DNA of 64,000 nucleotides, from the NCBI GenBank assembly GCA_031701365.1, contig GCA_031701365.1_4118.1. One strand, given 5' to 3'. The stretch is from Escherichia coli (GTDB lineage Bacteria > Pseudomonadota > Gammaproteobacteria > Enterobacterales > Enterobacteriaceae). The position numbers were made by a program, and so were the translations under genes. Each line of letters opens with the position of its first letter. Position 1 is the stretch's first letter. Shown here piece by piece: positions 1-21,801 of the stretch. The notes under the pieces were generated by a model. That model did not search any database, was not told the DNA's origin, and saw nothing but the letters and a program-made list of their open reading frames with translations.

Positions 1-88
1 GTATTCCACGCAGTAAGTACGAAAAAAGTAGTTGCCATTGATAGTAAAGTACTGTAATATAGTTTCATTAACTCAAGGAGTCAATACA

Positions 89-673
89 ATGCGTAACTAT
101 ACTAAATTCATCCGTTCACTTCATGCAATGGAAACTAATAAAGAGATCCTTACAGCTTGTCGGTTAGCTGGTCTGGAGATCGTCGGTGCGGGTTCTTCCC
201 GTATTGTATTCGCTTTAAATGATCGGTTAGTGATTAAGGTCGCTAATAGTGATGCTGGCGTAGATCAAAATGAAACTGAATGTAAGGTATGGAATTTTTT
301 AGATTATGACCGTCCGCACCTTAAACAGTACTTTGCAAAGGTGCATATGCATTTATGCGATCCTGATAATCTGTTTATTGTTATGGATCGTTTGAGTATT
401 GCAAGCAAAGGTAGTGCAAAGCACATAACGGCCTGTAATGAATTAAAGTACAATGCTAAACGTAAAACTATTGAACGCCAACACCATTTTGCCGATGCAC
501 TACAACACGTCGATGATACATTATCAACACTAACGATCATTGATATCAGCAAGACGAACATAGGCCAGGATCGCAACGGCTTGATTAAAGTACTTGATTA
601 CGGTTTAACCCGCAATATCTGGAATCAGTACTATAAAAAGCGTGATGTAAAAACCGTAACAATAACACGATAA
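89..673 (+). CDS. putative protein kinase-like protein
   Basis: ORF 32-673; likely start ATG 89 after AAGGAG. Gly-rich loop GAGSSRIVF, VIKV lysine, DISKTNIGQD catalytic-loop-like and DYG (DFG-like) motifs. Confidence 0.45.
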   Translation: MRNYTKFIRSLHAMETNKEILTACRLAGLEIVGAGSSRIVFALNDRLVIKVANSDAGVDQNETECKVWNFLDYDRPHLKQYFAKVHMHLCDPDNLFIVMDRLSIASKGSAKHITACNELKYNAKRKTIERQHHFADALQHVDDTLSTLTIIDISKTNIGQDRNGLIKVLDYGLTRNIWNQYYKKRDVKTVTITR

Positions 674-687
674 AAAAGATTAAAAAA

Positions 688-716
688 GGGATTGACTCAG
701 GTCAGTCCCTTTGCTA
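688..716 (+). terminator. rho-independent terminator-like hairpin
   Basis: GGGATTGAC-tcag-GTCAGTCCC inverted repeat followed by T-rich tract. Confidence 0.5.
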
Positions 717-744
717 TTATATATTCATTGAGAGATAACTCACT

Positions 745-775
745 GACCCATAGGGTGCGGAAGTGTATCTATTAT
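745..775 (+). promoter_or_regulatory. conserved intergenic box, copy 1
   Basis: CCCATAGGGTGCGGAAGTGTATCT; near-identical copy at 2665-2690, each downstream of a hairpin and upstream of a promoter cassette. Confidence 0.4.
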
Positions 776-809
776 ATAAGTATTCAGTACTGAAAACTAT
801 TTTATAAAA

Positions 810-875
810 AGTACTTGCATTGTACTTAGAATCAAGTATAATGTTTTATATCGAGAGGGGGAAATGGTTCTCCCT
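810..875 (+). promoter_or_regulatory. PeSL-like cassette 1: early-type promoter plus 5-prime UTR stem-loop
   Basis: -35 TTGCAT 815-820, 16-bp spacer, -10 TATAAT 837-842; hairpin AGGGGGAA-atgg-TTCTCCCT 855-874 just upstream of RBS. Confidence 0.6.
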
Positions 876-896
876 GGTACATTAAGGAATAAAATC

Positions 897-1118
897 ATGA
901 CTACGATGACTTGCGTTCACGCTTCAAATCTTCTGAATGATGCAGCATTTAAAGCAGGTGAAGAATATCAATGCTATCGGGATGAAAATAAAAAAGTTTT
1001 CGTCGTTGATGCTAACGGTTTCCATATTGAATTACAATCCGGCTTCACTGGTGTTGATGGTAAATCAGTATGGGGCGTACAGGACGATAACGGTACATAT
1101 CATTTTAAACGTAATTAA
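897..1118 (+). CDS. hypothetical small early protein
   Basis: ORF 864-1118, start moved to ATG 897 after AAGGA RBS downstream of cassette 1. Confidence 0.6.
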   Translation: MTTMTCVHASNLLNDAAFKAGEEYQCYRDENKKVFVVDANGFHIELQSGFTGVDGKSVWGVQDDNGTYHFKRN

Positions 1119-1121
1119 GTA

Positions 1122-1180
1122 TTGACAAAGTATATCAGTACTGTATAATAGTTTACATCAAGGGGAGAATAGTTCTCCCC
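1122..1180 (+). promoter_or_regulatory. PeSL-like cassette 2
   Basis: -35 TTGACA 1122-1127, TG-extended -10 TATAAT 1144-1149; hairpin GGGGAGA-atagt-TCTCCCC 1162-1180. Confidence 0.6.
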
Positions 1181-1202
1181 ACCAATAAAAGGAAACAAAA
1201 TT

Positions 1203-1475
1203 ATGTCCAGCTACTCCGCTACTATGATTATTAAAGATATGAACGGTAATCCTACTTCTGCTGGTGGATCATTTGGTAACATTAACTTAGATGGTCGGTT
1301 ATCAATTGAATCAGCCATCAATGCCGCGAAAGAAGTTTTTAAGAATGAATGTACTGTAAGCAAGCTGGATTATATGGGCTTCGCTATCGAGAAAACTAAT
1401 CGTTTTGTGGACTACAAAAAACCACTGATGATCGATACTAACCTGAAAGCTAACGAAGTGGAATACTTATTATGA
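1203..1475 (+). CDS. hypothetical small early protein
   Basis: ORF with AAAGGA RBS; downstream of cassette 2. Confidence 0.65.
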   Translation: MSSYSATMIIKDMNGNPTSAGGSFGNINLDGRLSIESAINAAKEVFKNECTVSKLDYMGFAIEKTNRFVDYKKPLMIDTNLKANEVEYLL

Positions 1476-1663
1476 CAGTAGAAGAAGTTAAAAAAGTACT
1501 GGCAGTACTACGCTATCATAATCATTGTAAGGTGAAGAATGATCCTGATTATCTTGATTCATCGCTGGAAGAGGATACACTACAAGCAATAAGCCATATG
1601 CAAAAAATGCTTAAGCGTATGACCGAAAAGAATAGGCCGGACTATATAGGAAATAAAATTTAA
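1472..1663 (+). CDS. hypothetical small protein
   Basis: ORF whose start overlaps upstream stop (ATGA), translationally coupled. Confidence 0.55.
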   Translation: MTVEEVKKVLAVLRYHNHCKVKNDPDYLDSSLEEDTLQAISHMQKMLKRMTEKNRPDYIGNKI

Positions 1664-1670
1664 AAAGTAC

Positions 1671-1727
1671 TTGCATTGTAAGTAAAACAAAGTATAATGT
1701 TTTGCATAGGGGGAGATATCCTCCCCC
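1671..1727 (+). promoter_or_regulatory. PeSL-like cassette 3
   Basis: -35 TTGCAT 1671-1676, -10 TATAAT 1693-1698; hairpin GGGGGAG-atatc-CTCCCCC 1709-1727. Confidence 0.6.
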
Positions 1728-1746
1728 ACTAATAAGGAGTACTAAA

Positions 1747-1971
1747 ATGGCTAACTTTGATGAACTGATGCGGGAAGTAGCTACCCTGGCAGAAGAGAAG
1801 AAATCATTTGATTCTATCTATAACACCGCTTACAGTGATTCAGTACTGGCATGTACTCAGGATCAAAAAGATGAACTGATCGCCACCTATCATGAAGCAT
1901 GGAAGTATTACCGCCAATGGGAGAAAGAAGAAAGCGAGTCTACCATCAACGGCCTCAATAATCTAATCTAA
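1747..1971 (+). CDS. hypothetical small early protein
   Basis: ORF 1702-1971, start moved to ATG 1747 after AAGGAG RBS. Confidence 0.65.
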   Translation: MANFDELMREVATLAEEKKSFDSIYNTAYSDSVLACTQDQKDELIATYHEAWKYYRQWEKEESESTINGLNNLI

Positions 1972-2046
1972 AGTTTTATTTCAGTACTATTATCATAGCG
2001 TGATAGTACTGTTGTGATAACTTTACTAACTACAAGGGGAAACATA

Positions 2047-2304
2047 ATGGAACAGTTTAAAACGTATCGGGTAAATCCAATCGCCACAGCCTACGTAGAA
2101 GACCATAAAACATTACCAGTACAGACACCAATCAAAGGCCGTATCTATCGTGCTATGCAGTGGAATAACGCCTATAATGGCTATAAAGCGGTATCCGCTG
2201 CAATGTACTTAGGGGATGGCGAATGGTTTGATCCAAATAATCCTGGTGCACTCGATAGTACTGAAAAAATGAAATGGGCCGACTATATCGAAGATATCTC
2301 ATAA
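2047..2304 (+). CDS. hypothetical small protein (MYLGDGE motif)
   Basis: ORF 2014-2304, start at ATG 2047; shares MYLGDGE motif with ORF 21801-22109. Confidence 0.6.
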   Translation: MEQFKTYRVNPIATAYVEDHKTLPVQTPIKGRIYRAMQWNNAYNGYKAVSAAMYLGDGEWFDPNNPGALDSTEKMKWADYIEDIS

Positions 2305-2311
2305 AAACTAT

Positions 2312-2373
2312 TTGACAGTACTACAAGATAATGTATAATGTTTTACATAGAGCGGGGGAATAGTTCTCCCGCA
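2312..2373 (+). promoter_or_regulatory. PeSL-like cassette 4
   Basis: -35 TTGACA 2312-2317, TG-extended -10 TATAAT 2334-2339; imperfect hairpin GCGGGGGA..TCTCCCGC 2352-2373. Confidence 0.6.
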
Positions 2374-2392
2374 CCTTTAGGAGTAAAACATT

Positions 2393-2593
2393 ATGTCAAT
2401 CGCTAACGAATTGGTTGCAGTACTGAATGAAGCAAAAGCCAACTGCATCGATGTACAGATCAAAGAGCTTGGCAATGGCTTGATCGGCTGTACATGTTCA
2501 GTTCAAACGGCTACCGATTATCGGGAAGTGGAATCACTCGAATCACTGGTACGGTATATTAAAATCCTGGTAGAAGATTGGAGAATCATCTAA
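2393..2593 (+). CDS. hypothetical small early protein
   Basis: ORF with TAGGAG RBS downstream of cassette 4. Confidence 0.65.
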   Translation: MSIANELVAVLNEAKANCIDVQIKELGNGLIGCTCSVQTATDYREVESLESLVRYIKILVEDWRII

Positions 2594-2611
2594 CAAAAAA
2601 GAATAAAAAAA

Positions 2612-2640
2612 GGAGTTGACTTCGGTCCGCTCCTTTAGTA
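2612..2640 (+). terminator. terminator-like hairpin
   Basis: GGAGTTGAC-ttcg-GTCCGCTCC followed by TTT. Confidence 0.45.
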
Positions 2641-2664
2641 CTATATACGCATAGACAAAAACTA

Positions 2665-2690
2665 GCCCACAGGGTGCAGAGAAGTATCTG
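2665..2690 (+). promoter_or_regulatory. conserved intergenic box, copy 2
   Basis: CCCACAGGGTGCAGAGAAGTATCT, homologous to 745-775. Confidence 0.4.
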
Positions 2691-2766
2691 TAAGATAGTT
2701 AATAACGGTGAGTAACTATCTGCTGGTGGATGTAATTCCAGTACTCAAAACTATTTCAAAAAAGTA

Positions 2767-2830
2767 TTGACAAAGTATAGCAGTACTGCAATAATGTATC
2801 TCGTAGGGCGGCAATGGTGCGACGGCCCAC
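2767..2830 (+). promoter_or_regulatory. PeSL-like cassette 5
   Basis: -35 TTGACA 2767-2772, -10 AATAAT about 2790-2795; GC-rich imperfect hairpin GGGCGGC..GGCCC 2806-2828. Confidence 0.5.
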
Positions 2831-2848
2831 AAAGTTAGGAGCTTCATC

Positions 2849-3175
2849 ATGAGTACTTCAATCGCTATCGTTAAAGCTTTCATCCGTACCAATTTCGACC
2901 GCATTACTGTTGATGGTAATGATCGGGAAGTAGAATACTCTTTCATTGTTGCACAAACCGCAAACGGTGCACGCTATATCTTAAACGATAGTGAAGCTAA
3001 CCACTACTTCTATAATAAAGGATTACACTACATCCCTAGCGAAGTAGTCTACACTAAGATGAATAAGCTGGTAGACAAGATTAACGCTAAAGGTACTATC
3101 GATTTACAGTACTGGACCGAAACAGATCCAGAATACGGATCACATCGTTACCTGAATCCAGGTATTAAAATGTAA
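2849..3175 (+). CDS. hypothetical small early protein
   Basis: ORF with AGGAG RBS. Confidence 0.65.
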   Translation: MSTSIAIVKAFIRTNFDRITVDGNDREVEYSFIVAQTANGARYILNDSEANHYFYNKGLHYIPSEVVYTKMNKLVDKINAKGTIDLQYWTETDPEYGSHRYLNPGIKM

Positions 3176-3182
3176 AAAGTAC

Positions 3183-3245
3183 TTGCATAGTACTTAGAAT
3201 CAAGTATAATGTTTTACATAGAGAGGGGGAAATGGTTCTCCCTCC
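3183..3245 (+). promoter_or_regulatory. PeSL-like cassette 6, near-identical to cassette 1
   Basis: -35 TTGCAT 3183-3188, -10 TATAAT 3205-3210; hairpin AGGGGGAAATGGTTCTCCCT 3223-3242; about 70 bp nearly identical to 808-875. Confidence 0.6.
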
Positions 3246-3264
3246 TAAATTAAGGAGTTTTATC

Positions 3265-3666
3265 ATGACCTTCTCAATCACTTCCTTCGCTGACGTTTTA
3301 GTACTGGCTCGGACTTTTGGTAAAGATGCACTGGAGTACGCTGTAAGTAATGGCACTCTCCAACCGGAACAATGCCGCATCATTGGAAACTGTAAACGTT
3401 GGGCGGTATCCAATACTATTGCACTAGAAAACTTCAACGATGGTAACAATGAGTATTCAGTTGATGCAGTATTCGAAGCCGTTGATCTTGGCGGTATCTA
3501 TAACACTAACCTAAATGATGTGCGTATCGTTCGCACGGGGTTCGGTGCTTATGATGTATCTATCCGTGAAGCTATGAACACCGGATACATTAGTAAGGAC
3601 TTACTTGCTCACATCATGCAGCTATGGACGGAACGTAACGAAGCACGCACTATCTTAGGACTATAA
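3265..3666 (+). CDS. hypothetical protein
   Basis: ORF 3232-3666, start moved to ATG 3265 after AAGGAG RBS. Confidence 0.65.
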   Translation: MTFSITSFADVLVLARTFGKDALEYAVSNGTLQPEQCRIIGNCKRWAVSNTIALENFNDGNNEYSVDAVFEAVDLGGIYNTNLNDVRIVRTGFGAYDVSIREAMNTGYISKDLLAHIMQLWTERNEARTILGL

Positions 3667-3690
3667 GCATTACACATCACCAAACATCAT

Positions 3691-3710
3691 AGGCCGCTCT
3701 CTAGCGGCCT
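3691..3710 (+). terminator. palindromic hairpin, weak terminator candidate
   Basis: AGGCCGCT-ctct-AGCGGCCT; no clear U-tract. Confidence 0.35.
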
Positions 3711-3734
3711 TAACTATATCAGGAGGGCATACAT

Positions 3735-3944
3735 ATGTTCTATACAGTATACAGCGTTCTAGGTACGATTGCTGGCGTACATGATAACGTCGATGATGCT
3801 ATGCGTACAGTACTAACACAAGTCCCCCTCAAGCCTAAGACTGTTAAGCAGATGACAGCACGACTAACCAGGGCGGGCGATGGCGTGGAAGTATGGCAGG
3901 ACTACGGGGATACACAGATAATCGTTAGCGTAACGAAGGATTAA
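3735..3944 (+). CDS. hypothetical small protein
   Basis: ORF with AGGAGG RBS. Confidence 0.55.
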   Translation: MFYTVYSVLGTIAGVHDNVDDAMRTVLTQVPLKPKTVKQMTARLTRAGDGVEVWQDYGDTQIIVSVTKD

Positions 3945-4135
3945 TGCGTAAAGGGATCTAGTACTGATTCAGAAAAAAGTCAAGGCGTTTTTAAAATTAT
4001 GCGTTAAAAAAATGCATAGGTAATCCCTTGACTTTTTTGAAATAAAAGGGATTGGACTATGGCAAAATGCGTAGGGGGCTAAAGGGCGGGTAACCTTAGC
4101 GACTTCGATAAAGGGGTATTACGAATAAAATGTTA

Positions 4136-4163
4136 TTGACTTTTTATACAATTCATATATTAT
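4136..4163 (+). promoter_or_regulatory. sigma70-like promoter upstream of family A array
   Basis: -35 TTGACT 4136-4141, 16-bp spacer, -10 TATTAT 4158-4163. Confidence 0.45.
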
Positions 4164-4193
4164 ATGATTGATATTATTTTCAAGGGAGTCCCT

Positions 4194-4391
4194 ATGCGTA
4201 TTTTAACTCAAGCAGAACACCACGAAAGACTTATCAATAACATGGCTATGATAATGTATAAGTCACATGAACGTGGTATTGCCTATAAGCGTGAATTAAT
4301 TATGGCACTATTCATTGGAACTAACTTTCAGGAAAGGTATGTCAAGGATTGGATTTGGTATTTAATTGAAGATGTAACGAGTAAACTATGA
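4194..4391 (+). CDS. family A small protein 1
   Basis: C-terminal FIGTNFQERYV..IEDVTSKL; start moved to ATG 4194. Confidence 0.65.
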   Translation: MRILTQAEHHERLINNMAMIMYKSHERGIAYKRELIMALFIGTNFQERYVKDWIWYLIEDVTSKL

Positions 4392-4588
4392 AAATGCGTA
4401 AATTAACCGAAAAAGAATATCAATCACTGTTACGTAAAAACTACGTAAAGATTTACAATACAGACACACACGTAGAACGAATGGAGTTATACCTTTTGAT
4501 TACATTGGGAACTAACTATCAGGATGCATGGGTGATTCAATATATGGATGCATTGAAAAATGAAATATTGTCCACGAGGAAACAATGA
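4388..4588 (+). CDS. family A small protein 2
   Basis: LGTNYQDAWV motif; ATGA overlap with upstream stop. Confidence 0.65.
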   Translation: MKMRKLTEKEYQSLLRKNYVKIYNTDTHVERMELYLLITLGTNYQDAWVIQYMDALKNEILSTRKQ

Positions 4589-4794
4589 AAACTATAACAC
4601 GAACCCAATCATTCGGACTTATCTTGAAATACATGGACTTAATGGTGGATATCAGCAAAGACCTGCCTAAAACTGCAATTGAAGTTGCAAGAGCAGAGAT
4701 CCGCATGTTGGCTGTACTGAACACAAACCATCAGGAAGAGTATGTTGACGATTGGATTCGATTTTTAATAGAAGATATTAAGAGTAAACTATGA
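4585..4794 (+). CDS. family A small protein 3
   Basis: LNTNHQEEYV..IEDIKSKL. Confidence 0.65.
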   Translation: MKTITRTQSFGLILKYMDLMVDISKDLPKTAIEVARAEIRMLAVLNTNHQEEYVDDWIRFLIEDIKSKL

Positions 4795-5003
4795 TTATAT
4801 TAACACCTGAAGAATATAAGAAACGTTTTAAATCTGTCCAGGCTGAAATATTACTTATATACCTTTCAAATGCAGATCTTAACTTATCAAGGGTAATGGA
4901 GAAGGATTTACTTATGGGTGCATTTTTGGATACAGACTTTCAGGAGTATTATGTAGGAGAATACTTTATTGCACTTCAGAACCACATTAAGAGTAAACTA
5001 TGA
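4791..5003 (+). CDS. family A small protein 4
   Basis: LDTDFQEYYV..IKSKL. Confidence 0.65.
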   Translation: MIILTPEEYKKRFKSVQAEILLIYLSNADLNLSRVMEKDLLMGAFLDTDFQEYYVGEYFIALQNHIKSKL

Positions 5004-5215
5004 TTATTCTAGAAAAATCATATCAATATACTGAACGCATCGCTGCCAGACAACTTGAAATCCTCATAATATACGAAGAGACTTCTGATTTAAACTTAGC
5101 CGAGGTATTGGAAAATGAAATACTTTTGGGTGCATTCTTGGGAACAGACTATCAGGAGTATTATGAGGAAAAGTATTTGTCATCTCTTGAGAAATACGTC
5201 AGGAGCAAACTATGA
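5000..5215 (+). CDS. family A small protein 5
   Basis: LGTDYQEYYE..VRSKL. Confidence 0.65.
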   Translation: MIILEKSYQYTERIAARQLEILIIYEETSDLNLAEVLENEILLGAFLGTDYQEYYEEKYLSSLEKYVRSKL

Positions 5216-5439
5216 AACATTTAAGTAATATAGAGAAGAATAAAATTATCATTGCTGTAATAAACAAATATTTTACACTTCCACAAAAAGAATGTTTATC
5301 TATAAGGGAACACAGGATAAACACCACCGAGATTCGCATGTTGGCTGTACTGGGGACTAACTTCCAAGAAGGCTATGTTCATGAGCACATCGTTGCACTC
5401 ACTAATTACATAATGGACAAATGTAATGAACATCATTAA
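5212..5439 (+). CDS. family A small protein 6
   Basis: LGTNFQEGYV. Confidence 0.65.
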   Translation: MKHLSNIEKNKIIIAVINKYFTLPQKECLSIREHRINTTEIRMLAVLGTNFQEGYVHEHIVALTNYIMDKCNEHH

Positions 5440-5650
5440 TAACTTTGAATACGAGGCCCGTGCTAAGAGTGCCAGAAAAAAAGAGAACACCATTTACTTC
5501 ACTATGATGTACTTACAATGGACTGAGATTGAAGAAAAGGTTGCTGAAGTATGGATGTTGGAATTCATGGGGACGCAGTATCAGAATAGGTTTGCGGGTG
5601 AGTATATCAATGTTCTTATGAAACAAATAGAAAGAAAGGAAAAGAACTAA
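5426..5650 (+). CDS. family A small protein 7
   Basis: MGTQYQNRFA. Confidence 0.6.
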   Translation: MNIINNFEYEARAKSARKKENTIYFTMMYLQWTEIEEKVAEVWMLEFMGTQYQNRFAGEYINVLMKQIERKEKN

Positions 5651-5808
5651 TGGTTTTCATTAACATATCTGACCAACTCGATACTAAACTAAAAGTCGAG
5701 AAGAGTGAGGGATGGATGCTGTACTTTCTTGGAACTTCTCATCAGAATTTTTATATCCATGAACACATAGTTGCACTCACAAATCTAATAAGGGATAAAT
5801 GCAAATGA
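5650..5808 (+). CDS. family A small protein 8 (52 aa, not in ORF track)
   Basis: Hand-translated MVFINISDQLDTKLKVEKSEGWMLYFLGTSHQNFYIHEHIVALTNLIRDKCK; below track length cutoff. Confidence 0.55.
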   Translation: MVFINISDQLDTKLKVEKSEGWMLYFLGTSHQNFYIHEHIVALTNLIRDKCK

Positions 5809-6062
5809 AACACTTAACACAAGATGAATATTCACTTAGAATTCGAAAGCTCACCCCAGAAGCAAGAGTAATCTACGATGACGATGCACTTTCATGGAAC
5901 GAGATGAAAGTTAAAGTTCATGAGCTATGGTTGCTGTACTTTGTGGGAACCCAATATCAAGAGAAATATTGTACCGATTATCTTGAACAACTAATGGATC
6001 TTATACAGATAAAACTAAATGAACGAATTGTGGAAAAATATGAAAACTTTATCAAGCACTGA
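5799..6062 (+). CDS. family A small protein 9
   Basis: VGTQYQEKYC; C-terminal extension past usual IK.KL end. Confidence 0.6.
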   Translation: MQMKHLTQDEYSLRIRKLTPEARVIYDDDALSWNEMKVKVHELWLLYFVGTQYQEKYCTDYLEQLMDLIQIKLNERIVEKYENFIKH

Positions 6063-6291
6063 GTATCAAACTGCCCTCTTCTCCCTTCTAAACACTCTCC
6101 GCACGAACAATAAACTTTATAATTCCCGTGAAGCTGATATTGTCAACGGTGAACTTTATCTTATGAAATTCATTGGAACAAACTATCAAGATCTGTTCAT
6201 TCAACGATACCTGGCAGCATTGAGAAACGAAATATCAGATAAAACCCGCCAAGCCAGAAGAGAATGGAAGAAACAATGCGACAAAGACTAA
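6019..6291 (+). CDS. family A small protein 10
   Basis: IGTNYQDLFI; start uncertain (6019 or 6040). Confidence 0.55.
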   Translation: MNELWKNMKTLSSTEYQTALFSLLNTLRTNNKLYNSREADIVNGELYLMKFIGTNYQDLFIQRYLAALRNEISDKTRQARREWKKQCDKD

Positions 6292-6527
6292 ATCACAAAA
6301 TGTATTGTAAACTATTACAGAATCTGGGACAAAAACACTATGATACAGTATCTGAAATATTACCCTATGATATCATGCGTTTAATTCATAGTGAGGCAGA
6401 GATGCTTGTACTGATGACAGGCACTGATAAAACAGCAATTACCAAATCTATAGATATGTTCATCGATGCACACTGCCAACACATTAGAACCGAGATATGG
6501 AGACGTGAGAATGAAAATCCTGACTGA
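6264..6527 (+). CDS. family A-like small protein 11 (divergent)
   Basis: MTGTDKTAI in place of LGTNYQ; start uncertain. Confidence 0.45.
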   Translation: MEETMRQRLNHKMYCKLLQNLGQKHYDTVSEILPYDIMRLIHSEAEMLVLMTGTDKTAITKSIDMFIDAHCQHIRTEIWRRENENPD

Positions 6528-6726
6528 GCATGAGTATTACAATAGGTTAAGAACGATACAAGGAAAAGTCTCGTGGACTTTTTTAGATAATTCTATTGCA
6601 GAAGCGGACCGATGTGTTATAATAGCTGAAATGAAGCTATTACTCTTCATTGGGACAAACTATCAAAGTATCTACATAGACGCATGGTTAAGCAGCTTAC
6701 GTCTGAAGTCGGTGAGTTTAAAATGA
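6511..6726 (+). CDS. family A small protein 12
   Basis: IGTNYQSIYI; start ATG 6511 (MKILTEHEY). Confidence 0.6.
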   Translation: MKILTEHEYYNRLRTIQGKVSWTFLDNSIAEADRCVIIAEMKLLLFIGTNYQSIYIDAWLSSLRLKSVSLK

Positions 6727-6941
6727 GAAAATTAATAGGTTTCGAATATGTTAAGCTTCTACAAACCTGTGGAATCAGAAGGAGAATGATTCAAAAGGAT
6801 AAAAGAATTGCCGAAGAACGAAAGTATATAATGATAACTGAACTTTATGTCTTAACACTCTTAGGCACAAACTATCAACACACTTATGTAGACCTATGGA
6901 TCGATGCACTACAGAAAGAGGTTAAAAGTAAATGCAAATGA
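6723..6941 (+). CDS. family A small protein 13
   Basis: LGTNYQHTYV; ATGA overlap start 6723. Confidence 0.6.
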   Translation: MRKLIGFEYVKLLQTCGIRRRMIQKDKRIAEERKYIMITELYVLTLLGTNYQHTYVDLWIDALQKEVKSKCK

Positions 6942-7150
6942 TTAATTTAAGTAAAGACGAATTTTATGTTATACTGGCGAAAACTTATCCAGCACGTAAG
7001 GCCGTTTATGATAGTCACATTATTGAACCCTCAAAGAAGTTGATTTTAGTAAATGAGATAAAGATGCTTTCAGTCTTAGGAACAAACTATCAAGAGAATG
7101 CGGTACTGATGTTAATTGATGCCCTCCAGCGAGAGGTTAAACGTAAATGA
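6932..7150 (+). CDS. family A small protein 14
   Basis: LGTNYQENAV; N-terminus MQMINLSKDEF. Confidence 0.65.
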   Translation: MQMINLSKDEFYVILAKTYPARKAVYDSHIIEPSKKLILVNEIKMLSVLGTNYQENAVLMLIDALQREVKRK

Positions 7151-7392
7151 AAATGATTAATTTAACTTACCATGAATATCAAAAACGTTTAAATGCATCC
7201 AGAGATATAAGGATTCAAATATTCAATAACAAAAGATTGAAGCCTGATATCAGGAAAATCAAAATCATAGAAGCCGTGTTGTGCAACTTCCTAGGGACTA
7301 ACTATCAGGAAGGTAAGGTAGAAAACTATCTTATAGAACTCATGAATAGTATTGAAAATAAATGCGAGGATAATGATCATGAAAATGATTAA
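7147..7392 (+). CDS. family A small protein 15
   Basis: LGTNYQEGKV; N-terminus MKMINLTYHEY. Confidence 0.65.
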   Translation: MKMINLTYHEYQKRLNASRDIRIQIFNNKRLKPDIRKIKIIEAVLCNFLGTNYQEGKVENYLIELMNSIENKCEDNDHEND

Positions 7393-7642
7393 TTTAAGTA
7401 AAGATGAATATACCGAGCGTATGACAAAAAATACTCTTAAACGTAATACAATCTATCACAACCCAGAAATTCAACACAGTAAGAAAATGATTATGATACG
7501 TGAGTTAAAGATGGGTGTATTCTTAGGAACAAACTATCAAGAGATGGAAGTAAATCGCTTAATCGCGGAGTTACTAATGGAAATCAAAGGTAAGCTGTAC
7601 TTTTATCAAATGACCCGTCCACTAAGGTGTACTGATCGATGA
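7379..7642 (+). CDS. family A small protein 16
   Basis: LGTNYQEMEV; start 7379 (MKMINLSKDEY) by analogy with the junction at 7147. Confidence 0.6.
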   Translation: MKMINLSKDEYTERMTKNTLKRNTIYHNPEIQHSKKMIMIRELKMGVFLGTNYQEMEVNRLIAELLMEIKGKLYFYQMTRPLRCTDR

Positions 7643-7881
7643 ATATTGTGAATAACATCAGATTAGCAGAAAGATTTGATAGAATTGGGGAAGCACTGAG
7701 AAGATACGATAAAGAATATGGTCATTTGAGCTTTTCTATAGAAAAGAGATATGAACTTGAAGCAGAGTTTAAAATGCAGAGTCTCTTAGGCACACAGTAT
7801 CAAAACCAATATATTCAAACTTGGATTGATTGTTTAATCCAGACAATTTACGTAAGGAACATTAAATGCAAAATGAAATGA
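7639..7881 (+). CDS. family A small protein 17
   Basis: LGTQYQNQYI. Confidence 0.6.
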   Translation: MNIVNNIRLAERFDRIGEALRRYDKEYGHLSFSIEKRYELEAEFKMQSLLGTQYQNQYIQTWIDCLIQTIYVRNIKCKMK

Positions 7882-8111
7882 TATACTTAACATATAATGA
7901 ATACGTCGAGAGATTAGTTAGTGCCAAGAGATATACAAATCAACTTCCTCACAACCCAAACCAAACCCCAGAGGAAAAGAATGCGGAAGCTCTATTCCAA
8001 GCACTACCATACCTTCTTGGAACTGATAGGCAGGAGTATCACGTTGAACGTATAATTAAATCTCTTAAAATCACTATTAAGGAAAAGATACATGAAGCAC
8101 TTGACAGATGA
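7866..8111 (+). CDS. family A small protein 18
   Basis: LGTDRQEYHV. Confidence 0.6.
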   Translation: MQNEMIYLTYNEYVERLVSAKRYTNQLPHNPNQTPEEKNAEALFQALPYLLGTDRQEYHVERIIKSLKITIKEKIHEALDR

Positions 8112-21490: not shown

Positions 21491-21801
21491 AAAACTTATT
21501 CAGTGTTCAGTACGTCCCTGGTGAAATTGGTTTATTATATCTATTTGACCATGATAATTCATTATTACTAGTAGTGAAGAAATGCCAAGCTAGTTCGTTT
21601 GTTGAATACATTCACGATAGTGAATACATTCCTGATTTCCTAGAGTGTGATTATCACGATGAACATGAATCATTTATTTTTCAGGAATCACTAGTATGGG
21701 ATAAATCGATCAACTTCTTTACGTTAATTGAATTACAAAAGCAGGTGAAGTATTATTGGGATTACTTAATTACACAGGATTACATTGAGATTGAAACATA
21801 A
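21487..21801 (+). CDS. family B protein 23
   Basis: ESFIFQESLVWD. Confidence 0.6.
   Translation: MKNLFSVQYVPGEIGLLYLFDHDNSLLLVVKKCQASSFVEYIHDSEYIPDFLECDYHDEHESFIFQESLVWDKSINFFTLIELQKQVKYYWDYLITQDYIEIET

Follow-up and report, generated by a model that had tools for sequence, protein, structure and literature searches.

The window analysed here, a stretch of 64,000 nucleotides from an Escherichia coli assembly (GCA_031701365.1, contig GCA_031701365.1_4118.1), is DNA of an Asteriusvirus jumbo phage (121Q/PBECO4/slurp01-like; Rak2-like group), and phage 121Q matches it at 96% identity across most of positions 1–5217. Near its start, six small genes are each preceded by a cassette made up of a sigma70-type promoter, a hairpin (weak in one case) and a Shine–Dalgarno (SD) sequence. 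It is probable that this cassette is a self-contained one-gene expression module as well as a recombination unit in the early region of the direct terminal repeat (DTR) of Asteriusvirus. This reading draws on the way in which the hairpin is conserved and on the positions of insertion and deletion (indel) junctions among related phages.

Structure and frequency of the cassettes

All six promoter and stem-loop units reported in a first-pass annotation of the window were located; they are numbered 1–6 by the position of the −35 box (815, 1122, 1671, 2312, 2767 and 3183; Table 1). Cassettes 1–4 and 6 are clean copies, in which TTGACA or TTGCAT is separated by 16 nt from TATAAT, followed by a conserved GTTTTACATAG-like leader, a hairpin of 7–9 bp, purine in its 5′ arm and pyrimidine in its 3′ arm, and then an SD that is left unpaired and the start codon ATG. 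Their hairpins fold at −11 to −15.9 kcal/mol. The annotation had ascribed a spacer of about 16 bp, TATAAT and a hairpin before the ribosome-binding site to all six units; cassette 5 departs from this description, with a 17-nt spacer, AATAAT and a weak GGGC..GCCC stem which folds no better than shuffles and is missed by the covariance model described below. The stems, given earlier as GGGGGA..TCCCCC, are corrected to GGGGAGAA/TTCTCCCC-type, several of them with G.U pairs, and the SD is unpaired in five of the six predicted folds. The stop codon of the upstream gene (1116–1118, 1661–1663, 2302–2304 and 3173–3175) lies in an A-rich stretch just 5′ of the −35 box. Cassettes 1 and 6, already noted as near-identical, share 90% identity over 97 nt (805–901 and 3173–3269), including the start codons at 897 and 3265.

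The first 4.1 kb of the window contains ten small same-strand open reading frames (ORFs; ATGs at 89, 897, 1203, 1472, 1747, 2047, 2393, 2849, 3265 and 3735), and the earlier claim that a cassette precedes every small ORF holds for six of these. The four without a cassette are ORF 89–673; ORF 1472–1663, which overlaps its upstream neighbour (ATGA); ORF 2047–2304, which has a different palindromic element upstream; and ORF 3735–3944.

Judged by their match to consensus, near-consensus sigma70 −35 and −10 boxes are present, as in the promoter early stem-loop (PeSL) cassettes of T4-type phages. The strict pattern TTGMMW-N16-TATAAT occurs five times in the window against 0.53 expected, each time on the plus strand and within 815–3210, while a pattern combining the −10, the leader and the G-run gives four matches against 0.00 expected. 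A generic promoter scan was uninformative as a count (33 hits against 31.6 expected); the strict pattern alone separates signal from background.

Table 1. Positions of the cassettes, the other repeated elements and the repeat boundary within the window
Feature	Position	Strand	Details
Cassette 1	805–899	+	A-rich stretch; −35 TTGCAT 815–820; −10 TATAAT 837–842
Cassette 1 hairpin	856–875	+	AGGGGGAA-ATGG-TTCTCCCT; one G.U
Cassette 1 SD and start codon	SD ~884–889; ATG 897	+	ORF 897–1118, 73 aa
Cassette 2	1116–1205	+	upstream stop TAA 1116–1118; −35 TTGACA 1122–1127; −10 1144–1149
Cassette 2 hairpin	1162–1180	+	GGGGAGAA-TAG-TTCTCCCC; ATG 1203 (90 aa)
Cassette 3	1661–1749	+	stop TAA 1661–1663; −35 TTGCAT 1671–1676; −10 1693–1698
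Cassette 3 hairpin	1709–1727	+	GGGGGAG-ATATC-CTCCCCC; ATG 1747 (74 aa)
Cassette 4	2302–2395	+	stop TAA 2302–2304; −35 TTGACA 2312–2317; −10 2334–2339
Cassette 4 hairpin	2352–2372	+	GCGGGGGAA-TAG-TTCTCCCGC; one G.U; ATG 2393 (66 aa)
Cassette 5 (atypical)	2755–2851	+	−35 TTGACA 2767–2772; 17-nt spacer; TG-extended −10 AATAAT 2790–2795
Cassette 5 stem	2806–2828	+	weak GGGC..GCCC closure; ATG 2849 (108 aa)
Cassette 6	3173–3267	+	stop TAA 3173–3175; −35 TTGCAT 3183–3188; −10 3205–3210
Cassette 6 hairpin	3223–3244	+	GAGGGGGAA-ATGG-TTCTCCCTC; one G.U; SD AAGGAG; ATG 3265 (133 aa)
Class C element, copy 1	676–800	+	A-run; strong hairpin 685–712 enclosing −35 TTGACT; −10 TATTAT 715–720
Class C element, copy 1 leader	747–761	+	noncoding; invariant CCCATAGGGTGCGGA
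Class C element, copy 2	2598–2760	+	hairpin 2609–2636 enclosing TTGACT; −10 TACTAT; invariant CCCACAGGGTGCAGA 2666–2680
Class B palindrome	1982–2011	+	CAGTACTATTATCATAGCGTGATAGTACTG; upstream of ORF 2047–2304
Right boundary of DTR (inferred)	~4096	none	homology to vB_Ec-M-J position 21525

Position in the terminal repeat

By homology to vB_Ec-M-J, the cassettes of the window are placed at the end of a DTR of about 21 kb. DTRs of about 20–21.5 kb have been confirmed experimentally in fEgEco12 and Sharanji, in papers that are silent on promoters and hairpins. In vB_Ec-M-J the DTR (1–21525) holds 53 small plus-strand genes separated by gaps of 60–100 bp, about 28 of which carry the cassette; past the DTR the genes overlap and no cassette was found. 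When one cassette was used as a BLAST query, about 14 copies were returned from genome records of about 348 kb and 28–30 from records that hold both repeats, and in those records that annotate ‘direct terminal repeat’ features the cassette sits beneath them. Covariance-model hits in locus L005 all fall before 21525, and in the window they comprise only the five clean cassettes.

The cassettes are thus concentrated in a variable, ORFan-rich region, as PeSLs are; the genes that they flank belong to no Pfam family and to PHROGs of unknown function. At about 4096 the layout switches from spaced, cassette-driven genes to overlapping paralogues. From there on (at least 4164–8000) tandem paralogous ORFs of about 70 aa follow one another with overlapping stop and start codons (ATGA) and no promoters in between, and relatives hold dozens of copies of this family.

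In PA5oct, a related jumbo phage, the genes of the DTR are highly transcribed from one strand at 5 min, infection is sensitive to rifampicin, and mapped transcript starts coincide with TTGAC/TATAATA promoters (PMC7318152). By analogy, early timing and use of the host RNA polymerase may reasonably be expected of the cassettes.

Conservation of the hairpin as RNA

Sites were selected by promoter alone in the window and nine related loci, giving 155 hits, 154 of them on the plus strand, with 105 unique downstream sequences. Eighty of the 105 fold at −9 kcal/mol or better, and the mean fold downstream of the promoters is −10.5 kcal/mol compared to −4.5 kcal/mol for shuffles. The stem begins 10–15 nt after the −10 in 65 of 67 hairpins, most commonly at an offset of 12, and the hairpin is therefore most probably transcribed from its own promoter. 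Among the positions within stems that are not Watson–Crick pairs there are 14 G.T, no A.C and one C.T. Read in the plus sense, a G.T becomes a G.U pair once transcribed into mRNA, whereas the opposite strand has an A.C mismatch at that place; this asymmetry therefore points to selection of the hairpin as RNA, in the mRNA sense. The mRNA-level role that the first-pass annotation had offered as an alternative is the better fit to it.

A covariance model built from ten gap-free cassette copies returned 133 hits, all on the plus strand. Of the cells in the alignment of these hits, 94.6% are paired, compared to 84.8% in shuffles and 58–81% when the partners are slid; seven of nine pairs have changes on both sides, and the observed values were reached by none of 500 shuffles. 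RNAalifold run on MAFFT alignments recovered no cassette hairpin, an artefact of the variable stem and loop lengths, and a loop-anchored tabulation and the covariance-model alignment were used in its place. Scans of the region with Rfam (E up to 1) and for tRNAs returned nothing. In K64-1 (Alcyoneusvirus) a hairpin lies at the same offset but its stems are unrelated in sequence, and the cassette layout recurs in Erwinia phage Hallingskeid; the position and pairing of the hairpin are therefore conserved more than its sequence.

Alternatively, an RNA-binding factor of the phage or the host could recognise the hairpin as its binding site and so control the whole early gene set at once, for example through shut-off, processing or anti-pausing. 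A 5′ arm that is 97% purine, the fixed offset from the −10 and the conserved loop-closing pairs (A-U, A-U) would suit such a site. However, the loops vary (TAG, ATGG, ATGA, ACATC and others), the stems of K64-1 bear no sequence relationship to the rest, and no candidate factor was identified, so that recognition of this kind appears improbable.

Three more specific roles were rejected. A DNA cruciform or site-specific recombination at the hairpin does not agree with the 14 G.T against no A.C, nor with two mapped crossovers that lie in the promoter spacer and not in the stem. RNase III needs longer stems than the 7–10 bp found here, which are too short to be its site. Finally, GGAG, as expected of a RegB-type cleavage target, is absent from many stems.

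Termination as an alternative

In 66 of 67 hairpins no more than three T occur in the 8 nt 3′ of the stem. Termination is unlikely because there is no U-tract, and on sequence features the cassette hairpin does not look like an intrinsic terminator. A terminator scan reported none of the stem-loops at 856–875, 1162–1180, 1709–1727, 2352–2372 and 3223–3244; its sole hit within a cassette was a 5-bp CTCCT/AAGGAG pairing at 3242–3257, which involves the SD of cassette 6.

These results bear on the possibility that the cassettes are canonical PeSLs, in which the stem-loop would terminate or attenuate transcription of the upstream gene and the cassette would form a terminator–promoter junction. PeSL stem-loops share the polarity of a G-run followed by a C-run (PMC4122927), one of them matched rrnB T1 as a terminator in a reporter (PMC2839356; PMC4122927), and the cassettes do lie between same-strand genes. 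Yet besides the missing U-tract, a hairpin located 3′ of its own −10 would abort its own transcripts too, and separate terminator-like hairpins with A-run and T-run flanks are found nearby, in the class C elements. We regard this possibility as unlikely, marginally more so than recognition by an RNA-binding factor.

Gain, loss and shuffling of genes at cassettes

Related phages were searched for cassette-flanked insertions by means of chained alignments of the vB_Ec-M-J DTR and the window against 121Q, slurp01, JP4, PBECO4, A4 and BF17. About 14 distinct indels were found among these relatives. At least six have junction overlaps of 42–108 nt that lie inside cassettes on both sides, although cassettes make up only 8–13% of the sequence surveyed, and in a seventh indel the overlap, of 85 nt, falls in a repeated promoter without a hairpin. 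Four of the six cassettes in the window are indel junctions. Both vB_Ec-M-J and A4 have a gene of 408 nt at cassette 2 (junction 1117–1215); at cassette 3 (1662–1709) an extra gene of 264–267 nt is present in slurp01, JP4, PBECO4, A4, BF17 and vB_Ec-M-J; cassette 4 and its gene (2307–2596) are missing from BF17; and at cassette 5 (2759–2820) 121Q has an extra gene (315). The Sharanji locus adds no junction, its break at 1662 being an event already counted. Base-level alignments revealed chimeric cassettes, with two crossovers mapped to the promoter spacer. The modular gene shuffling suspected in the first-pass annotation is supported by these junctions and chimeras; as far as sequence comparison can tell, genes are gained, lost and shuffled at the cassettes much as in T4-type phages.

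A separate motif, AGTACT / CAGTACTG, recurs in or beside many promoter spacers (window 780–3200 and related loci) and at the ends of class C elements. Both mapped crossovers lie in or beside it.

The cassette is also found in W70, an rV5-like member of the Vequintavirinae with a genome of 137 kb. Its cassettes have the identical stem GGGGAGAA/TTCTCCCC and near-identical leader and post-hairpin sequences, and 11 of its small genes are homologous to DTR genes of Asteriusvirus (37–93% amino acid identity), in scrambled order. The gene of cassette 4 (ORF 2393–2593) has a 73% identical homologue in W70, and it has further homologues among Asteriusvirus, rV5-like, Certrevirus and Klebsiella phages. 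The W70 locus (L012, OP778610.1 67970–84043) shares 85.7% identity with vB_Ec-M-J along a stretch of 516 nt. Sigma70-like promoters are listed in the rV5 paper, but no hairpin linked to them.

We tentatively suggest, as something possible though less than likely, that the cassette is a portable adaptor common to Rak2-like jumbo phages and rV5-like Vequintavirinae, whose homology would move single early genes between families at co-infection in a form ready for expression, the terminal repeat serving as a marketplace of exchangeable early genes. The presence of the same cassette and gene modules in an unrelated rV5-like phage itself points to gene exchange across phage families.

It is very improbable that the similarity of the cassettes merely reflects constraint on promoter and leader together with tandem gene duplication, with junctions falling there as breaks within genes are not tolerated and with no promotion of recombination: intergenic DNA is indeed the only neutral place for breakpoints, and junction homology is slight or absent in about half of the indels, but the six events with overlaps of 42–108 nt, the chimeric cassettes, the lack of relationship among the flanked genes (each in a different PHROG) and the scrambled gene order between W70 and Asteriusvirus all stand against it.

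A proposed model for cassette function

In the module that we propose, an A-rich, UP-like stretch would hold the stop codon of the previous gene, and a near-consensus sigma70 promoter would be read by the host RNA polymerase. A short leader would follow, in which the first structured element is an RNA hairpin of 7–9 bp running from purine to pyrimidine, and then a free SD and the ATG. Homologous recombination between cassettes, possible because 60–100 nt of nearly the same sequence recurs before many genes, would delete, insert or re-order single-gene modules, and each surviving gene would retain a complete promoter and leader. The hairpin itself is best seen as a leader element that may protect or insulate the 5′ region of the mRNA, and with such insulation each gene would be expressed regardless of the module next to it.

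The ompA-type 5′ stem-loops that stabilise mRNAs of E. coli offer a parallel, each being a stable hairpin close to the mRNA 5′ end, upstream of a free ribosome-binding site. Their action requires that the stem be preceded by very few unpaired nucleotides. In the cassettes transcription presumably starts about 7 nt after the −10, which would leave 5–8 unpaired nucleotides.

Several points weigh against the proposed module. According to the E. coli ompA work, 5–8 unpaired nucleotides are reportedly at or beyond the limit of 5′-end protection. The hairpin is not obligatory, since about a quarter of the promoters, and in effect cassette 5 too, lack it. The alignment from which covariation was scored was fitted to the structure of the model, and many of its copies are related by descent. 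The cassette promoters are matches to consensus only. About half of the indels, with overlaps of 14 nt or less, were not repeat-mediated. Finally, no cassettes were found outside the DTR in about 72 kb of non-DTR sequence and from BLAST copy counts, which do not amount to a whole-genome scan.

PeSL-type shuffling has so far been documented only in T4-type phages. If the proposed module is correct, a working analogue in the DTR of a 350-kb jumbo phage would explain the gain and loss of dozens of tiny host-takeover genes. The cassettes would then mark likely immediate-early genes, offer compact parts combining a strong promoter with a leader, and predict sites of engineered or natural deletions in therapeutic jumbo phages.

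Comparison with known systems

PeSLs are composite promoter–terminator motifs, with a stem-loop mostly within or overlapping the promoter (PMC2839356), and they have been described in the T4-type phages RB49/phi1, T4/PST and KVP40/nt-1 (Arbiol 2010, PMC2839356; Comeau 2014, PMC4122927). The model of shuffling at PeSLs rests on indel junctions within repeats and on chimeric repeats, both among close relatives (PMC2839356). Encapsidated mini-circles, formed when neighbouring repeats recombine, are a further feature of PeSLs. Like PeSLs, the cassettes are intergenic repeats of about 100 bp clustered ahead of ORFans; the stop codon of the preceding gene falls in A/T-rich sequence, the promoter boxes are of sigma70 type, the stem-loop consists of a purine run followed by a pyrimidine run (a G-run, then a C-run; weak in cassette 5), and an SD and an ATG complete the unit. 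They also share indels between close relatives that are bounded by repeats, with chimeric repeats at the junctions. In contrast to PeSLs, the stem-loop of the cassettes begins 10–15 nt 3′ of the −10, is probably transcribed, has no U-tract and appears to be selected in the RNA sense. It thus lies in none of the common PeSL positions (within, overlapping or just upstream of the promoter), and the rare PeSL class ‘downstream of the −10’ is the sole one to approach its architecture. The setting differs as well, being a DTR of about 21 kb in a Rak2-like jumbo phage rather than the hyperplastic regions of a circularly permuted T4-type genome. Layout, ORFan genes and indel junctions inside the units support the PeSL match claimed earlier, whereas stem position, the lack of a U-tract and genomic setting depart from it. 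The cassettes appear to behave like PeSLs as shuffling modules; in architecture and genomic setting they are a variant, not proven members.

PA5oct likewise has a long DTR of small same-strand genes with strong early transcription by the host polymerase from TTGAC/TATAATA promoters, but it is a distant relative with a different host, and neither a promoter-linked leader hairpin nor cassette shuffling has been described in it (PMC7318152). These cassettes are not described in the literature on Asteriusvirus, RaK2-like and rV5 phages that was searched, which did not include subscription journals.

The terminal repeat of phage T5 enters the cell first, carrying small pre-early host-takeover genes under very strong sigma70 promoters. 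The arrangement of small genes under strong sigma70-type promoters in a terminal repeat is similar, but there is no sequence relationship; we know of no repeated promoter–hairpin unit in T5, and of no two-step DNA transfer in Asteriusvirus.

Other repeated elements and neighbouring features

In two further classes of element in the same region, B and C, the stem-loop covers the −35, an architecture nearer than that of the cassettes to canonical PeSLs. Class C comes closer in layout also through its A-run and T-run flanks. Within it, a hairpin enclosing the −35 is followed by the −10 and a ‘CAT’ start and then, about 25 nt further on, by an invariant CCCAYNGGGTGC; no ORF intervenes before the next promoter, and copy 2 leaves about 110 nt of noncoding sequence before cassette 5. 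The window contains two copies against 0.09 expected, and there are 5–10 copies per terminal repeat in Asteriusvirus, fENko-Kae01, 7t3, K64-1 and Hallingskeid, with some copies beyond the repeat and on the opposite strand (L001–L011, both strands). A short upstream hairpin is present in 27 of the 42 unique copies; at least 15 different stems occur among these hairpins, and their loops are rich in purines. Class C gave no match in Rfam, and RNAalifold on its MAFFT alignment returned just the invariant CCC/GGG mini-stem. Abundant noncoding RNAs are produced from the DTR of PA5oct, and class C may be a leader or a small RNA. A weaker possibility is that the promoter, the small hairpin and the invariant CCCAYNGGGUGC together define a new leader or small RNA family, perhaps nut/put-like, governing read-through of the array.

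In relatives (L001–L007) the class B element reads CAGTACTATTGACATAGyTTGATAGTACTG followed by GCATAAT, with a −35 TTGACA in the 5′ arm, and occurs in 2–4 copies per repeat. The copy in the window has TTATCA..GTGATA; its stem is kept (−17.3 kcal/mol) and its −35 TTGACA is lost.

ORF 89–673 (194 aa) is preceded by a weaker promoter-like sequence, TTGCCA-17-TAATAT at 32–60, with no hairpin. It has no Pfam hit and falls in PHROG 4301, of unknown function. ORFs annotated as ‘protein kinase’ in K64-1 and fENko-Kae01 measure 585–591 nt and lie about 3–3.5 kb before the end of the repeat or locus; ORF 89–673 measures 585 nt and is similar to them in size and position. A G+C-rich hairpin without a promoter, AGGCCGCTCTCTAGCGGCCT at 3691–3710, lies between ORF 3265–3666 and ORF 3735–3944 and scored as terminator-like on the minus strand.

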